A stretch of 64,000 bases of DNA from an uncultured Verrucomicrobiae bacterium (GCA_963764165.1 CAVXRD010000001.1:992001-1056000), one strand, 5' to 3'; shown: positions 333 through 34,096, numbered from the stretch's first letter. Numbers and translations: made by a program. The notes: a model not told the origin generated them from the letters alone.

Positions 333-433
333 GTATGGACGCCTCGCCGAGGCGTCCGGGGTGAGGTTCTCTCAATTCCAGCGTCTTGAAAATTTCACAC
401 GTCGACCCGGACGCCTCGGCGAGGCGTCCCTGC
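333..433. repeat. REP family A inverted doublet (REPIN-like)
   Basis: GGACGCCTCGCCGAGGCGTCCGGG (337-360) and its exact reverse complement (406-429); each arm is itself palindromic; GTAG-like outer ends (GTAT / CTGC). Confidence 0.9.
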
Positions 434-5291: not shown

Positions 5292-6077
5292 TCAAACATT
5301 CAGAAGCTGCTCTATTTTTTCGCCGATGCTCTCGCGCTCCCTGTTGCGCAACAGCGATTCTCCCACTAGGATCGCCCCTGCCCCCGCGCGATAGACTTGC
5401 TGCACGTCGGCTGCCGTGTTCAATCCGCTTTCGGCGACGATGAACTTCCCCGGCATCTTCGCGGCGAGGCGGGCGGTCGTCCCCAAATCCACAGTAAAAT
5501 TATCCAAATTTCGATTGTTGACGCCGATGAGCGGCGCGTCCATCGCAAGCACGCGTTCCAGTTCCGCCTCATCATGCACCTCGACCAGCGCGGTCAAGCC
5601 CGCGTCGACGGCGAGTTGATGGAACTGGCGCAATTGCGCGTCGGACAAAATTCGAACGATTAACAGGATGGCGTCCGCGCCGTTTTCGGCCGCCTCAAGA
5701 ATCTGGCGTTCGTCAATTATAAAGTCCTTGCGCAAGAGAGGAAGCGAAACCGCCGCGCGAATTTGCCGAAGGTATTCCAATGAGCCTTGAAAGAATTTCT
5801 CGTCCGTGAGCACGGAAAGACAGGCAGCCCCCGCCGCTTCGTATTCGCGGGCGATGCGAACGGGATCAAAATCCGCGCAGATGACTCCGGCGGACGGCGA
5901 GGCTTTCTTTACTTCCGCGATCAATGCAACCGGGCCGCGCCTGGGCTGGCGCAGCGCGGAAAAAAAATCGCGCGGCGAACGGCGGGCATCCCGGATCATC
6001 GCGGGCGTGACTTCGAAAGTTGGCAGCTTCGCCACTTCGCGCTTTTTCTCCGCGACAATGGTGTCGAGGATGTTCAT
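5292..6077 (-). CDS. trpC: indole-3-glycerol phosphate synthase
   Basis: IAEVKKASPSAG, LSVLTD..FFQGS, LRKDFI, GVNNRNL, AESG motifs; ATG overlaps prfB stop (TAATG). Confidence 0.97.
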   Translation of the reverse strand: MNILDTIVAEKKREVAKLPTFEVTPAMIRDARRSPRDFFSALRQPRRGPVALIAEVKKASPSAGVICADFDPVRIAREYEAAGAACLSVLTDEKFFQGSLEYLRQIRAAVSLPLLRKDFIIDERQILEAAENGADAILLIVRILSDAQLRQFHQLAVDAGLTALVEVHDEAELERVLAMDAPLIGVNNRNLDNFTVDLGTTARLAAKMPGKFIVAESGLNTAADVQQVYRAGAGAILVGESLLRNRERESIGEKIEQLLNV

Positions 6078-7223
6078 TAGTCTTCCTCGTCTTTGACGCC
6101 GGCCATGCGTTTGAGCGGGCAGCCGGCGCGCAGCCACGCGTTGACGAATGGGTCCAAATTGCCGTCCATGACGCCCTGGACATTGCTTGTTTCCTCGCCG
6201 GTGCGCAGGTCTTTCACCATGCGATACGGCTGGAAAACATAACTGCGAATCTGGTGTCCAAAGCCAATCGAGCCTTTCTCTCCGTAAAAGCGTTCCAATT
6301 CCGCTTTCTGCTCGTCAACCCGTTTGGCGTAAATTTTCGAAATCAACATGCGCATGGCGGTGGCGCGGTTTTGATGCTGTGATCGCTGGCCTTGCGATGC
6401 GGCAATCAAGCCCGTGGGCAAGTGCGTGATGCGGACGGCTGTTTCCACTTTGTTGACGTTCTGCCCGCCCTTGCCGCCGGAGCGATACGTGTCCACCTGC
6501 AATTCGGCGGGCGGAAGAACGATATCCGAACTCGTCTCCTCGATTTCCGCGATGACGTCGACGCTGGCGAAACTGGTGTGGCGGCGCTTATTGGAATCGT
6601 AAGGAGAAATGCGGACGAGGCGATGGACGCCGCGCTCGGCTTTGCAGAAACCGTAGGCGCATTCGCCGTTGATCAGCAGCGTGGCGCTCTTGATGCCCGC
6701 CGTTTCGCCGAGCAGGACATCCGATACTTCAACTTCCCAGCCGCGATTTTCGCACCAGCGCTGGTACATGCGCAGGAGCATGTCCGCCCAGTCGCAAGCT
6801 TCCGTGCCGCCCGCGCCGGAGTTAATGCTGAGGATGCAATTGTTCCTGTCGTGCGGGCCGTTGAGAAAAACCCGCAGCTCAATGCTCTCCAGCTCACTGG
6901 TGAATTTCGCCAGGTCGCGCTCCAGTTCGGCTTCGTGGCGGGGCTGTTCGCTGGCAGGCTCGTCTTGCACCAATTCGAGCATCGCCTTGAAATCTTCGGC
7001 CTGGCGCTCGGCTTTGAGGACGGGCTCCGTCTTTTTGCGGAGAGAATTGGCTTCGTCGATGAGGGCCTGGGCTTTTTCGCGGTTATTCCAGAAACCCTCC
7101 TGGGCCATCAACTGATCAAGTTCGGCGAGGCGTTTTTGAATTCCTGGCAAGTCAAAGAAACCTCCGCAGATGAGCAACTTTTTCCTCAGCGGCCGGCAAT
7201 TGAACTTTGATCTTGTCGAACAT
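6077..7223 (-). CDS. prfB: peptide chain release factor 2, programmed +1 frameshift (join 7223..7155 + 7153..6077)
   Basis: GAGGTEA, GVHRLVRISPY, GGQ motifs; 23-codon first frame MFDKIKVQLPAAEEKVAHLRRFL ends at CTT TGA C. Confidence 0.97.
7151..7167 (-). promoter_or_regulatory. RF2 +1 frameshift site with internal Shine-Dalgarno
   Basis: Minus strand GCGGAGGTTTCTTTGAC = GGAGG-N3-CTT TGA C. Confidence 0.95.
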
Positions 7224-7282: not shown

Positions 7283-7366
7283 GCAGGGGCGCCTAGCCGA
7301 GGCTTCCGAGGACTTTCACAAGTCCGAACGCGCTCGAAAAACGCCGCAGCCTCGGACGCCTCGGCG
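7283..7366. repeat. REP family A doublet, right arm split by IS1182 (remainder at 9050-9065)
   Basis: Degenerate left arm GCAGGGGCGCCTAGCCGAGGCTTCC; spacer homologous to the reverse complement of 34007-34096; right arm GGACGCCTCGGCG | AGGCGTCCCTAC. Confidence 0.88.
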
Positions 7367-9049
7367 GAGACTGTCTCAAAACGTTTTAGTCTGGCCGATC
7401 TGGTTATATGGGCACCAATAGGGGCTGTGGAAACGGGTGTCAACTTTTAGTTGTCAGAGCGTGGCTGGCGTCAGCGATGACGCCAAGCTTCCCTTTCCCT
7501 CCTTTTTTAGGCCGCCATCGCCAAATTTCCTTCAACCGCGGCGGTTTTGACTTCCATTTTCGGCGTCTGGACCCGGGCCTGCCACTTTTTATAGAGGATT
7601 CGCAGGTTCAAGGTGGCGCATAACAAGGCCCATTGGGCTTGCACGGCTTCCAGACCCCAAACTGTCCAACGCCGAAAGCCGTCGTGTTGCTTGAGCTGCC
7701 CAAACCGGCGTTCGATGATCTCTTTGCGCTTTCCATAAAGCGCGGCGGGTCCTGGCTCTTGCAGCCGGGCCCGCATGGCTTGCACCAGCGTGGTGTGCGG
7801 CCACACTTCGACTTGCCGCCCTTTGGGATCGCGGCTGCAGAGGGCGCGCACGGGACAGTCTCGGTGATGGCAGCGGAAGCGCTCAACGGTCTGGCCTTTC
7901 TTGGTGGTCTGGCCTTCGTGGTCCAGAAGGCGCTCTTGCGGGCAGGTGACGGTGTGGGCCGCCTCGTCATAATGAAAATGCTGCGTCGCGTAGGCGTTGT
8001 CGTGGGCTGGCTTGCCCTCCGCCGGCGGGGCCAGCACATTCATCTGCTGTTCCACGGCCGCTTTCAAGTCGGCCCCGCCCCCATAGCCGGCGTCGGCGGC
8101 GGTGAGGGTTGGAATGGCCGCCGGACCGAGGTTTTGCCTCGCTTCTTCAATCATGGGGACCAGCTGGCCGGCGTCGGTTTCCTGGCGGGTGGCTTGACAG
8201 GCGACCATGATGCCCTCCTGGCTGTCGGCCACCGCCTGGGCGTTGTAGGCAAAGCGGTTGGTGTCGCCGACTTTCATCCGGCGCGCCTCCGGTTCGGCTG
8301 GATGGTAATGGTGGCGCCCGTCGGCCTGCAGCTGGGCCAGGCCTTTTTTGATTTCCTCGCGCAGGGCCTGGCGCTGGGCCAACCCGGCGGGCAGCCGGCA
8401 GCCCGGTGCGCTGGAATCCTGGTTCTCCGCCACGACTTTGAGCTCGATTTCCTCCAAGGCGCCATCCAGCTGGGCCAGGAGCTTCTCCATGTAAACCTTG
8501 CTCCAGCCCTGCGGCCCGCTGCAGGCGGCTTGAATCTTGGTGCCGTCCAACGCTTGCAAGGCAAATCCCACCGCCCCGGTGCGGAGGGCCAGCTGCACGG
8601 TTTGCTTGAAAACCTGGCGCAGGGCCTTTTTGTTTCCGTCCCAGAACCGCCAGAGGCTGTTGTGGTCGGGGGCGTTGAGCCCCGTCAGCCACAGCAGCGA
8701 GACATGCTCCGTGCAGGCGGTTTCCAGCTTGCGGGTGGAGCGAATGCGGTGGAAATAACCGTAAAGCCAAATCTTGAGCAGGAGGCTGGGGGCATAGGGC
8801 GGACGGCCTTCGGCGGCGGCGGGAATGACAAACCCAAGCTGGGGCAGATCCAACTGGTCGACAAATTCGCGCAGGAAGCGGGCGGGATGGTCGGCGGACA
8901 CCCAGTCCTCCAGGGCGGGCGGGAGGAGGAACTGCTGTCCGTAATCAGGGGCAATCGGTTGAGCCATATTTGTTGAACGGCATTGTCAACTAAAGGCTCA
9001 CATATTGTCAAATACATTCCTCAAAAAACAGAAGTTTTGAGACAATCTC
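7367..9049 (-). mobile_element. IS1182-family insertion sequence, 1683 bp
   Basis: 16-bp TIRs GAGACTGTCTCAAAAC (7367-7382) / GTTTTGAGACAATCTC (9034-9049), one mismatch; GGCG target duplication at 7363-7366 and 9050-9053. Confidence 0.93.
7507..8967 (-). CDS. IS1182-family DDE transposase
   Basis: QQFLLPP, GRPPYAP..LLKIWLYGY, PDH, DGTKIQA, YNAQ, ADAGY, Cys cluster, IERRFGQLK. Confidence 0.93.
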   Translation of the reverse strand: MAQPIAPDYGQQFLLPPALEDWVSADHPARFLREFVDQLDLPQLGFVIPAAAEGRPPYAPSLLLKIWLYGYFHRIRSTRKLETACTEHVSLLWLTGLNAPDHNSLWRFWDGNKKALRQVFKQTVQLALRTGAVGFALQALDGTKIQAACSGPQGWSKVYMEKLLAQLDGALEEIELKVVAENQDSSAPGCRLPAGLAQRQALREEIKKGLAQLQADGRHHYHPAEPEARRMKVGDTNRFAYNAQAVADSQEGIMVACQATRQETDAGQLVPMIEEARQNLGPAAIPTLTAADAGYGGGADLKAAVEQQMNVLAPPAEGKPAHDNAYATQHFHYDEAAHTVTCPQERLLDHEGQTTKKGQTVERFRCHHRDCPVRALCSRDPKGRQVEVWPHTTLVQAMRARLQEPGPAALYGKRKEIIERRFGQLKQHDGFRRWTVWGLEAVQAQWALLCATLNLRILYKKWQARVQTPKMEVKTAAVEGNLAMAA

Positions 9050-9061
9050 GGCGAGGCGTCC

Positions 9062-9646
9062 CTACCTTAATTTCCAGCGCGCGTGCCATTGTTGCAGGGT
9101 GCTCACGAAATAACGATCCCGCTTGTGATTGACAACACCGATGAATGAATCGCCCAGCCGAATTGCAATTGCCAACGACCATACAAATAGGACGATTGTA
9201 ATTAGAAAATTCTGCCAGCCGTCGAGCGGCCATTGATGCCGCCAGAACCAAATCGGATTTTGCCGCAACGGGCCAAGATACATGATGGGCCAAAGATCAA
9301 TCGCATCGGGCCCCCGCGAACCGAGAAAATCGCACAGCACATGCAAATGAAACGCCACCAAAGCCAGGCCGAAGACGCGCCAGCGCTTGTGAGCGATGGC
9401 TGCCATGATTACGGCGCAAAGCAGGGCCGCTGGCAAACCGTGGCCGACAAAGTGATGGTATTTTGGATAATAATAATACTCGTATTTGCCGGAAGTCGTG
9501 GCGTCCTTATACCAGTCAACAAAAAGGCCCAAACCATCGAGATCCGGAATGACGCCAGCCAATGAAACCAATCGCCGGTCGCGCAAATTGTCGGTCGTTT
9601 TGGCGGCAATGATCCAACTGGCCAGCAAATGAGTTAATGGCGACAT
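9062..9646 (-). CDS. membrane-bound metal-dependent hydrolase (YdjM-like)
   Basis: M.PLTH, PDLD, HH..GH, HLH..CD motifs with hydrophobic helices; its TAG stop lies in the REP GTAG. Confidence 0.8.
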   Translation of the reverse strand: MSPLTHLLASWIIAAKTTDNLRDRRLVSLAGVIPDLDGLGLFVDWYKDATTSGKYEYYYYPKYHHFVGHGLPAALLCAVIMAAIAHKRWRVFGLALVAFHLHVLCDFLGSRGPDAIDLWPIMYLGPLRQNPIWFWRHQWPLDGWQNFLITIVLFVWSLAIAIRLGDSFIGVVNHKRDRYFVSTLQQWHARWKLR

Positions 9647-9701
9647 TCCGAGAGCGAATTTGTCCGCCCCTCCAGCAAACACCAAAAACCATGTTTGGTT
9701 C

Positions 9702-32506: not shown

Positions 32507-33039
32507 GCAGGGACGCCTCGCCGAGGCGTCCGGGGTGGGAATTCCCCAAACGAAATTCGTGCATTGAACCCATGAACTCGGCAGGGCGAGGCTCCCGCCG
32601 AGCCATGCCTTGCTTAATCTTTGCACGCATCTGAGCCGGAGCGCGGCTGTGTCGAAGACCAGCCGCAGCCGTGTTAATACCGAGAGGCGCGCCGGTTCAC
32701 TCGAACGCTGCTGCGGCTGGTCTTCGACACAGCCGCGCTCCGGCTTGGGGTTTGCGCAATCTCCGGCGGAGAGGAGCGCAAGACATGCCAAGAGCATGGC
32801 TCGGCCGGAGCCTCGCCCCACCGTCTGCCTTGGTAAGTTCATGGGGAGGCATGATTGACGCGCAAACCCGGACGCCTCGGCGGAGATTGTCTCAAAACTA
32901 CAAAATCCTCAAAGTGTGTCAATACTACGACTCTCTCATTTGCGATATGGCGCATTTTTATTTTCGGCGAGGGTGTTTTTGTGGTGCTTTTTAAAGCCAT
33001 TTTTGAGTTTTGAGACAGTCTCCGGCGAGGCGTCCCTAC
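32507..33039. repeat. nested composite REP structure A-D-B-C|C'-B'-D'-A'
   Basis: A 32507-32534; D CCCATGAAC 32569-32577; B 32581-32608; C 32634-32669; C' 32710-32745; B' 32794-32821; D' 32837-32845; A' 32867-32882 + 33023-33039. Confidence 0.9.
32883..33022 (+). mobile_element. 140 bp MITE with the TIRs of the IS1182 element at 7367-9049
   Basis: GAGATTGTCTCAAAAC (32883-32898) ... GTTTTGAGACAGTCTC (33007-33022); CGGCG duplicated at 32878-32882 and 33023-33027; AT-rich non-coding interior. Confidence 0.92.
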
Positions 33040-34006: not shown

Positions 34007-34096
34007 GTAGCGCCTCGCCGAGGCGTCTGAGGCCGTGGCGTTTTTCGAACGCGTTCGGACTTGCGAGAGTCCCCGGACGCCGCGGCGAGGCGCTAC
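34007..34096. repeat. REP family A doublet, uninterrupted
   Basis: GTAGCGCCTCGCCGAGGCGTC ... GACGCCGCGGCGAGGCGCTAC; spacer homologous to 7307-7353. Confidence 0.88.

Follow-up and report, generated by a model that had tools for sequence, protein, structure and literature searches.

An IS1182-family insertion sequence and a MITE with the same ends occupy the dyad centres of two families of repetitive extragenic palindromes in a Verrucomicrobiae genome

Why should a mobile element sit at the very centre of a short intergenic palindrome, and what singles that centre out? The question is raised by positions 7283-9065 of a 64,000-nucleotide stretch of DNA from an uncultured Verrucomicrobiae bacterium (GCA_963764165.1 CAVXRD010000001.1:992001-1056000; "the window" is this whole stretch, and positions are counted from its first letter). 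There, an insertion sequence (IS) of the IS1182 family splits a GTAG-tagged palindrome of the kind called repetitive extragenic palindromes (REPs); this palindrome is designated REP-A. An initial annotation of the window had suggested that the transposase recognises REP-A, as sequence or as hairpin, and that a dispersed repeat serves it as a safe harbour. The genome answers the first half of the question directly: the IS, and a miniature transposable element of the inverted-repeat type (MITE) with the same ends, are located exclusively at REP centres, and in two different REP families. The second half is answered with less certainty. On balance it appears probable that this is an active IS1182-family IS with its MITE, and that the transposase picks the dyad centre of GTAG-tagged REPs by reading the stem-loop together with a few shared bases.

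The site in the window is easily restored. Removing the IS and one copy of its GGCG target-site duplication joins the flanks (7354-7366 and 9054-9065) into a 25-nt unit consisting of a 21-nt palindrome followed by CTAC, just as the initial annotation had it; the coordinates and sequence that it gave for the IS hold as well, and its phrase "exactly at the centre" is correct to within half a base, the centre of the palindrome being base 11 and the duplication spanning bases 10-13, that is, the loop plus one base. As single-stranded DNA, REP-A is predicted to fold into a 9-bp stem with a 3-nt GGC loop (-10.4 kcal/mol). Three intact copies elsewhere in the window (333-357, minus strand; 409-433, plus; 32507-32531, minus) have a 21-nt palindrome identical to that of the restored site; the number of such matches expected from 100 shuffles of the window is 0. 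The complete unit had been said to recur at 409-433 and 32507-32531: the palindrome does, the exact 25-mer is absent from the window, and each of the intact copies is one tag base away from it (CTGC or ATAC instead of CTAC). REP-A doublets occupy 333-433, 7283-9065 and 34007-34096. The likeness that had been seen between the spacer of the IS-hosting doublet and that of the last of these is real: the restored 96-nt doublet and the reverse complement of 34007-34096 are identical in 79 of 96 columns. The REP-A copies of the window are located between open reading frames (ORFs).

The element belongs to the IS1182 family, as had been proposed. An IS of this family is roughly 1.3-2 kb long, is bounded by terminal inverted repeats and has direct repeats that are short or variable, and the size of the IS, its ends (matching at 15 of 16 positions) and its 4-bp duplication agree with these ranges. 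The transposase scores 346.7 bits against the NCBIfam profile NF033551 (transpos_IS1182; cut-off 270), its residues 10-459 aligning with profile positions 5-486 of 488, while the IS5 and ISNCY profiles score under their cut-offs on the same protein. Its Pfam domains, all over cut-off, are DUF772 (PF05598, residues 54-122), DDE_Tnp_1 (PF01609, 227-455) and DDE_Tnp_1_6 (PF13751, 341-456). The nearest plasmid-borne IS1182 transposases are merely 29-32% identical to it. The end motif has 4 matches in the window, where shuffling predicts 0.06: two of these are the ends of the IS, and the other two delimit the MITE.

The MITE (32883-33022) interrupts a second REP-A of the window. The initial annotation had passed over this second element with identical ends. 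It is 140 bp long, is devoid of coding capacity and has only its 16-bp ends in common with the IS, and is therefore classed as a MITE; presumably it is moved in trans by the transposase of the IS. (Adjoining it, at 32568-32834, are nested long inverted repeats: inner arms of 42 nt at 32634-32675 and 32704-32745, 95% complementary, and outer arms of 41 nt at 32568-32608 and 32794-32834, 80% complementary. They are another palindromic repeat family, and not a target of the IS.)

How general is the arrangement? The window is part of a 7.0-Mb assembly in 5 contigs (G000; contigs C1-C5), which was searched on both strands (14 Mb) for the end motif with up to 2 mismatches. There are 104 matches, 94 of which are the two ends of 47 complete elements, namely 26 IS of exactly 1683 bp and 21 MITEs of 140 bp. 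A REP dyad centre hosts every one of the 47: 42 are in REP-A, 4 are in a second palindrome, REP-B (stem GGGCGG.../...CCGCCC, centre CGCA, tag CTAC), and one is an A/B hybrid. Three more matches are REP-flanked ends of partial or diverged elements: an IS cut by the contig start at C3:1681, a lone MITE end and a diverged remnant (C2:1391613 and C1:1276500). The remaining 7 are isolated, have 2 mismatches and are accompanied by neither a partner end nor a REP; by our own arithmetic, about 7 such matches are expected by chance in 14 Mb. The initial annotation had named its own test, asking whether most copies of these ends lie outside REP-A; the opposite is seen, 42 of 47 being inside it. Its proposal that REP-A is recognised is thus supported across the genome, while the notion of REP-A as the only target falls, REP-B being used too.

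These copies have hardly diverged. The genome has 27 open transposase genes, whose proteins are about 100% identical. Among the 26 complete IS, 19, the window copy included, have one and the same 1683-nt sequence, and each of the other 7 departs from it by 1-2 single-nucleotide polymorphisms (SNPs); total variation amounts to 7 SNPs in 26 x 1683 nt (about 44 kb). Near-identity on this scale implies recency, and the whole looks like a recent burst in one lineage: the transposase is found in none of four same-genus genomes, and the exact end motif, sought in a sample of 400 other genomes of the phylum, has a match in only 2, one hit each, which adds no further insertion sites. The 27 open near-identical copies and about 47 independent insertions suggest that the IS is active.

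That the insertions are independent follows from their surroundings. Sequences 60-460 bp outside each element, compared between sites, are unrelated beyond the REPs, apart from flanks that overlap or contain a MITE (the neighbouring MITE and IS at C1:597576/597792, and a flank of C2:1391806 that holds a MITE) and three REP-B flanks, which align at 76-84% over 122-151 bp. Within REP-A the IS has both orientations relative to the tag (14 versus 8), consistent with a symmetric target. The hybrid copy, C2:2992594-2994276, has the GTAG-side half of a REP-A on one flank and half of a REP-B on the other. Recombination of one IS copy with another is expected to leave such a pair of flanks, and the hybrid would accordingly mark an IS-mediated rearrangement.

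Is the palindrome the target or a part of the element? The two half-sites are mutually inverted and prolong the apparent terminal repeat, and one might imagine that they are simply the long inverted ends of the element, with the roughly 370 REP-A units as its footprints or minimal derivatives. We give this next to no credence. IS copies that differ from the commonest sequence by nothing or by 1-2 SNPs are bounded in some cases by REP-A and in others by REP-B; the boundary is always GAGA...TCTC, with a direct duplication, as a rule of 4 bp, just outside it; and the tag of REP-A stands on one side only, whereas the IS is present in both orientations. REP-A is also abundant in related genomes (153 copies in G011, 138 in G019, 30 in G027, 20 in G021, 18 in G003, 11 in G010, and others). 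At a threshold of E 1e-30 or better, no transposase match is found in those REP-A-bearing relatives, except for a short fragment in G011; the ends of the element are absent from G027, G003, G010, G021 and G022, or represented by a single near-match, and in G019 the end motif matches 6 times, a MITE-like pair being included. The presence of REP-A in related genomes where the element is not found argues for REP-A as the target, as opposed to a component of the element.

Hardly better placed is the proposal that insertion is random and that selection has purged every copy outside the harmless REP centres. REPs are intergenic, and insertions into them should be nearly neutral. But a burst that has left only 7 SNPs among its IS copies is recent, and neutral intergenic DNA far exceeds about 500 four-base sites, yet 47 of 47 elements are in the same register, down to the base.

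What kind of repeats are these? The genome has 371-387 REP-A sites, about 371 of them unoccupied; CTAC is the commonest tag among 371 sites (207), and CTGC is found at 94. About 95 pairs among the 371 sites form convergent doublets at 40-80 bp spacing. REP-A accordingly has the attributes by which REPs are known: a short palindrome (20-40 nt) tagged with GTAG/CTAC at one end, more than 100 copies, and frequent inverted doublets of the REPIN or BIME kind. (The GTAG tag class of REPs is described in PMC3733652.) Unoccupied REP-B sites number about 51-81, so that empty REP-A and REP-B together offer roughly 500 positions in 7.0 million; occupancy is about 10% for REP-A versus about 5-8% for REP-B. 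An apparent third REP, with 92 copies, was discarded on finding that it is one clustered regularly interspaced short palindromic repeat (CRISPR) array, C1:185961-192548, with a period of 71-74. (In one REP-A doublet both REPs are occupied: a MITE at C1:597576-597715 and an IS at C1:597792-599474 are 76 bp apart, and a comparable neighbourhood of MITE and IS is found at C2:1391613-1393488. A remnant of a different and older relative of the IS, C1:1276500-1276793, retains 68% protein identity over residues 6-62, followed by a TGA; its diverged end adjoins a GCAG-tagged half-palindrome, 12 nt from the tag.)

If the REP centre is the target, is it the shape or the sequence of the REP that is read? 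A census of perfect hairpins in the genome (stem of at least 8 bp, loop of 3-6 nt) provides a first indication. It yields 1369 hairpins, made up of 299 REP-A, 28 REP-B-like, 27 IS-internal, 92 CRISPR repeats and 923 others; the GC-rich ones with a 3-4-nt loop comprise the 299 REP-A, 271 others and the 92 CRISPR repeats. Neither IS nor MITE is found in any of the 923 others, the 271 GC-rich hairpins with a 3-4-nt loop among them, or in any of the CRISPR repeats, which, with a perfect 8-bp GC-rich stem and a 4-nt loop, serve as a negative control. A stem-loop alone is therefore insufficient as a target. A first alternative to structural reading takes its lead from this result: the element would be just as specific, with a symmetric complex reading duplex half-sites (the GG.CG foot, the central GC and the register on the GTAG side) and making a fixed 4-bp staggered cut at the dyad, and there would be no extrusion. 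We regard this as a real possibility, though not the leading one. It accounts well for the use of REP families only, for duplications of exactly 4 bp at 36 of the 47 elements, and for the duplication of 4 bp in REP-A despite a 3-nt loop. It also accounts well for the register, counted over all ends with GTAG within 24 nt: the distance from GTAG to the element is exactly 12 nt at 45 of 49 tagged ends in this genome and at 21 of 28 elsewhere.

It accounts less well for the latitude in sequence. The geometry of REP-A and REP-B is the same, the duplication being preceded by 9 nt and followed by 8 nt and CTAC. By our own reading, though, their sequences coincide at just 14 of 25 aligned positions (in the GG.CG foot, at the central GC and in the C..CC-CTAC end), and yet the two are used at similar rates. 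Relatives of the IS in other Verrucomicrobiota-type assemblies show the same latitude on a wider scale. Six, at 63-78% protein identity, have both ends in view, and relatives in this range remain central in palindromes of quite different sequence, one of which (L020/L002) has no GTAG tag: in L013, L018 and L020 a 4-bp duplication is the loop of a palindrome with a 7-9-bp stem, and in L016 the 4-bp duplication lies in a weak palindrome. In the other two, L014 and L019, half-sites of the same side stand on both flanks, which points to recombination or misassembly. (L068 and L136 have this arrangement as well: both flanks are the tagged side of the palindrome, mutually reverse-complementary and without a direct duplication, as would result either from an inversion, when copies in opposite orientation recombine, or from a repeat that was assembled wrongly.) GTAG palindromes also house the related MITEs of G011, G029 and G019. 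More distant relatives (L021-L027, 37-39% identity) have other ends and longer terminal repeats.

A metagenome scan adds 80 loci, most of them lone matches and probably due to chance; 16 distinct paired elements are among them. Of the 16, 7 show complementarity at 6 or more of 9 flank positions, against about 2 by chance, and a direct duplication of 4 bp or longer is present in 7. Among the latter, L082 and L114 have the 4-nt loop as their duplication; in L104 a 7-bp duplication lies inside a larger loop, which a fixed 4-bp stagger does not readily explain. (L134 was considered as a 3-bp duplication and set aside as ambiguous, since its contig contains that exact palindrome in no intact copy.) Two further considerations tell against duplex reading alone: the register slips at REP-A, where GGCG, CGGC and CGGCG all occur, and IS1272, of the same family, is reported to read structure. 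Taking these together, we infer that structure is read, and not duplex sequence alone, and both shape and sequence seem to count in the choice of target.

The duplications repay a closer look. A perfect 4-bp duplication flanks 36 of the 47 elements. Its register in REP-A is GGCG in most, CGGC or the complement in three, and CGGCG once; a 3-nt loop cannot be centred on a 4-bp stagger, and this may explain the slip. The two copies of the duplication differ in 9 of the 46 non-hybrid elements, always at the single base that touches the element. Eight of the nine odd bases are on the GTAG side, where, on the strand read into the element, C is expected and A (four times) or G (four times) is found; the ninth, on the other side, is C for G, and T is never seen. 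At the level of 7 SNPs in about 44 kb, ordinary mutation is unable to account for 9 changed bases among the 92 at the junctions. Junctions in REP-B (A) or in oppositely oriented REP-A (G or C) show the same bases as the variants, and one donor nucleotide may travel with the end of the element. Such carry-over is consistent with which bases occur, but predicts neither the preference for the GTAG side nor the perfect duplications at four REP-B sites; the odd bases may also reflect an error-prone last step of gap filling, or be a consensus artefact at repeat borders. (Two attempts to order these data came to nothing. Descent of the odd junctions from REP-B copies cannot be traced by a phylogeny of the IS, since the copies, with their 7 SNPs in total, are too alike; and a rule that a REP-A tagged on both sides shifts the duplication by one base was dropped, being true for 3 of 4 such copies.)

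A stronger version of structural reading can be put forward tentatively: that, in this clade of DDE transposases, the two stem-loop junctions of an extruded cruciform determine where strand transfer cuts the target, in place of a fixed active-site spacing on B-form DNA, so that the duplication is the loop. Were this so, 1) the length of the duplication would follow the loop (4 bp as a rule, with 5 and 7 observed, and possibly 3); 2) the REP families would be exploited as the most extrudable palindromes of the genome; and 3) the odd junction bases would be a second footprint of an unusual mechanism.

Must the transposase do the choosing? A host protein bound to REPs (a RAYT-type protein, that is, a REP-associated tyrosine transposase; gyrase; integration host factor, IHF; or another) might recruit a transposition complex that has no REP specificity of its own. 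REPs are known as binding sites of host proteins (PMC2817692), the genome encodes 10 proteins of the Y1_Tnp (IS200/RAYT) type, and a shared factor could explain equal use of two unlike REP families. A cut that is precise to the base and fixed in register across genomes of different genera is not what such recruitment would lead one to expect; relatives in other hosts target other palindromes; and the specificity of IS1397 and ISKpn1 has been assigned experimentally to their transposases (as related in PMC1525189). Nor do the Y1_Tnp genes help: three are clustered at C4:238-242 kb and some are flanked by hairpin pairs of their own, and neither REP-A nor REP-B is present within 1.2 kb of any of the 10, so that a RAYT link to REP-A was rejected and a cognate RAYT is not found in the genome. 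It follows that REP-A is filed as REP-like by its form, and not as a proven RAYT-driven family. A host factor as the agent of targeting is improbable in our estimate, and the target choice would be made by the transposase itself.

The sequence of events that we favor can be outlined as follows. The DDE transposase would bind the 16-bp ends, the only part that the MITE has in common with the IS. It would then dock on the dyad-symmetric stem-loop of a REP, probably as an extruded hairpin or cruciform, reading stem-loop geometry together with the few common bases at the foot and centre of the palindrome. The 3' ends of the element would be joined at or beside the two borders of the loop, both strands being cut there, and repair would duplicate the loop. 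The product would usually be 4 bp, and at REP-A, with its 3-nt loop, its register and length would shift by a base. From the docking step onward we infer these events from their products. Being intergenic and numerous, REPs would act as a safe harbour in which a recent burst could build up about 50 copies while leaving genes intact; safe harbouring is the likely reason why so many copies are tolerated.

Several considerations weigh against this scheme, and some against structural reading in particular. All of the evidence is computational and comes from sequence comparison. Within the genome, the element ignores the 923 perfect non-REP hairpins and the 92 CRISPR repeats; the targets that it does use have the GG.CG foot, the central GC and the tag in common, and a dimer reading duplex half-sites gives the same picture. 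The 4-bp duplication in REP-A, set against the predicted 3-nt loop, means that duplication and loop do not coincide exactly. A single MITE provides the 7-bp duplication, and L134, the candidate for 3 bp, is ambiguous. That the MITE is mobilised in trans is deduced from common ends alone. With no RAYT gene adjoining them, REP-A and REP-B are not established as classical RAYT-driven REPs in this genome, and a host REP-binding protein as the real targeting factor retains a small probability. A same-locus pair of empty and filled sites cannot be compared, the same-genus genomes being only about 68% identical in DNA: for the flank 9050-9700, identity to G001-G004 is 67-68%, which is too distant for orthologous intergenic comparison (the exception is a 48-nt piece in G004, at 88%). 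Six sequencing runs, available as contigs, contain just 5-10% of the sampled words. Taking all of this into account, we give structural reading about twice the weight of duplex reading, which stays a serious contender.

How does this element compare with others that seek out REPs? REP-specific insertion is listed for members of the IS3, IS110, IS4, IS256 and IS5 families (Tobes & Pareja 2006, PMC1525189), and the initial annotation was right in taking REP targeting by IS1397 and IS621 to be in print: the same paper cites experiments for IS1397 and ISKpn1 (IS3) and for IS621 (IS110). Its type 1 association comprises ISPsy8 (IS3), ISPa11, ISPpu9, ISPpu10 and ISRm19 (IS110) and ISRm22 (IS4); the term IS1182 does not occur in it. 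The present association is of type 1 in their sense, with all 47 complete elements at REP centres and the 12-nt tag distance kept at 45 of 49 ends. Closest in behaviour is ISRm22, which is described as inserting at the axis of palindromy and as having short direct repeats; imperfections in some of these are ascribed there to recombination between copies, and here there is one A/B hybrid copy, C2:2992594. ISRm22 differs in belonging to the IS4 family, subgroup IS4Sa (PMC2266710), and in having a 6-bp repeat, where the present element is IS1182 with 4 bp; its IS4 membership led to its rejection as a possible earlier IS1182 case. Members of IS110 differ in their chemistry, which is that of an RNA-guided recombinase (PMC11208160). 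Compared with the published REP-targeting IS, the present case has far more copies (26 IS and 21 MITEs), a MITE with the same target, and two unlike REP families.

Within the IS1182 family, the preference of some members for palindromes, on which the initial annotation also drew, is likewise in print (Siguier 2015, as quoted in PMC5678879 and PMC4923244). IS1272/TnSha1 of staphylococci is assigned to the same transposase family. Its targets, according to the same two papers, are stem-loop-forming inverted repeats of unrelated sequence, often terminators, and are entered in both orientations; its insertions are at the foot of the stem, the hairpin is lost in part or entirely, and no duplication is made. 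The present element, in contrast, keeps both halves of the palindrome, duplicates the loop and is confined to two REP families in its genome: the stem-loop replacing mode of IS1272 is not the mode found here. One pathway drawn by Wan et al. (PMC5678879) in their model starts from attack at the 5' side of the two loops and results in duplication of the loop; this loop-duplicating branch is the outcome seen for the present element. ISPye18 and MITEPye1 of Paracoccus yeei (PMC11578231) and ISCaa15 of Amoebophilus (PMC3196728) provide formal parallels, the two IS being IS1182 elements that have a single ORF, terminal inverted repeats of about 18 bp and direct repeats of 4 bp, and MITEPye1 being intergenic and having its ends in common with an IS1182 member; the accounts of ISPye18 and ISCaa15 in these papers mention neither REP nor palindrome targeting. 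Searches of the literature for IS1182 together with REP, palindrome, hairpin or stem-loop turned up no report of a REP-specific IS1182 element.

The features of the window, and the Y1_Tnp matches of the genome, are collected in Table 1. The hairpin inside the IS lies 22 nt 3' of the transposase stop codon, is kept in all 27 copies and is not followed by a run of T; it may be a terminator. The neighbouring gene at 6077-7223 (minus strand) is prfB, encoding release factor 2, with a canonical programmed +1 frameshift: its first frame, MFDKIKVQLPAAEEKVAHLRRFL, ends at the TGA in CTT TGA C, and the long ORF goes on in the +1 frame. The IS is upstream of prfB, with 143 bp between its end and the start of the gene; transposase and prfB run in the same direction, and read-through from one into the other is conceivable.

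Table 1. The IS, the MITE and the REP-A sites of the window (window positions), with the Y1_Tnp matches of the genome (contig positions)
Feature	Position	Strand	Remarks
Insertion sequence, IS1182 family	7367-9049	-	1683 bp
Terminal inverted repeat distal to transposase start	7367-7382	+	GAGACTGTCTCAAAAC; contains its own small palindrome GAGAC-T-GTCTC
Terminal inverted repeat at transposase-proximal end	9034-9049	-	GAGATTGTCTCAAAAC, read on minus strand
Transposase gene	7507-8967	-	486 aa, single open frame; ORF plus Pfam/NCBIfam matches
Perfect hairpin within IS	7466-7485		8-bp stem, 4-nt loop GCGA
Partner REP and spacer of the REP-A doublet hosting the IS	7283-7353		Partner degenerate, about 7283-7308; doublet resembles a REPIN (REP doublet forming hairpins)
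Left half of interrupted REP-A	7354-7366	+	Arm GGACGCCTC 7354-7362; duplication copy 1, GGCG, 7363-7366
Right half of interrupted REP-A	9050-9065	+	GGCG 9050-9053; arm AGGCGTCC 9054-9061; CTAC tag 9062-9065
Intact empty REP-A	409-433	+	Doublet with 333-357 (minus)
Intact empty REP-A	32507-32531	-	
Intact REP-A doublet	34007-34096		Spacer like that of the IS-hosting doublet
Left half of second interrupted REP-A	32870-32882	+	5-bp duplication CGGCG at 32878-32882
MITE	32883-33022		140 bp; same 16-bp ends as IS
Right half of MITE-hosting REP-A	33023-33039	+	CGGCG 33023-33027, arm, CTAC tag
Y1_Tnp matches	C2:1942606, C3:29097, C2:3187467, C4:1840, C2:390390, C5:52626, C4:238114-242381, C1:293973		

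What is new in this, and what is not? REP targeting in five IS families and hairpin preference in IS1182 are already known; what is described here is a duplicating, family-restricted form. A specialist will not be very surprised to meet REP targeting here. As no report of it was found for IS1182, the case would extend REP targeting to a sixth family, and in Verrucomicrobiota. It is also unusually clean: about 50 independent insertions with almost no divergence, two unlike targets with the same geometry, a MITE with the same target, and negative controls built into the genome in the form of CRISPR repeats and hundreds of other hairpins. This makes it a good natural system for a question that comes from the work on IS1272, whether DNA structure or sequence is read, and for the cutting of a hairpin target by a DDE transposase. 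A transposase that lands only in a 21-nt intergenic palindrome is, in addition, a potential tool for safe-harbour insertion in bacteria that carry such repeats. For the annotation of genomes of this lineage, the lesson is that REP doublets are hot spots for the accumulation of IS and MITEs and for IS-mediated rearrangement, of which the A/B hybrid is one instance.

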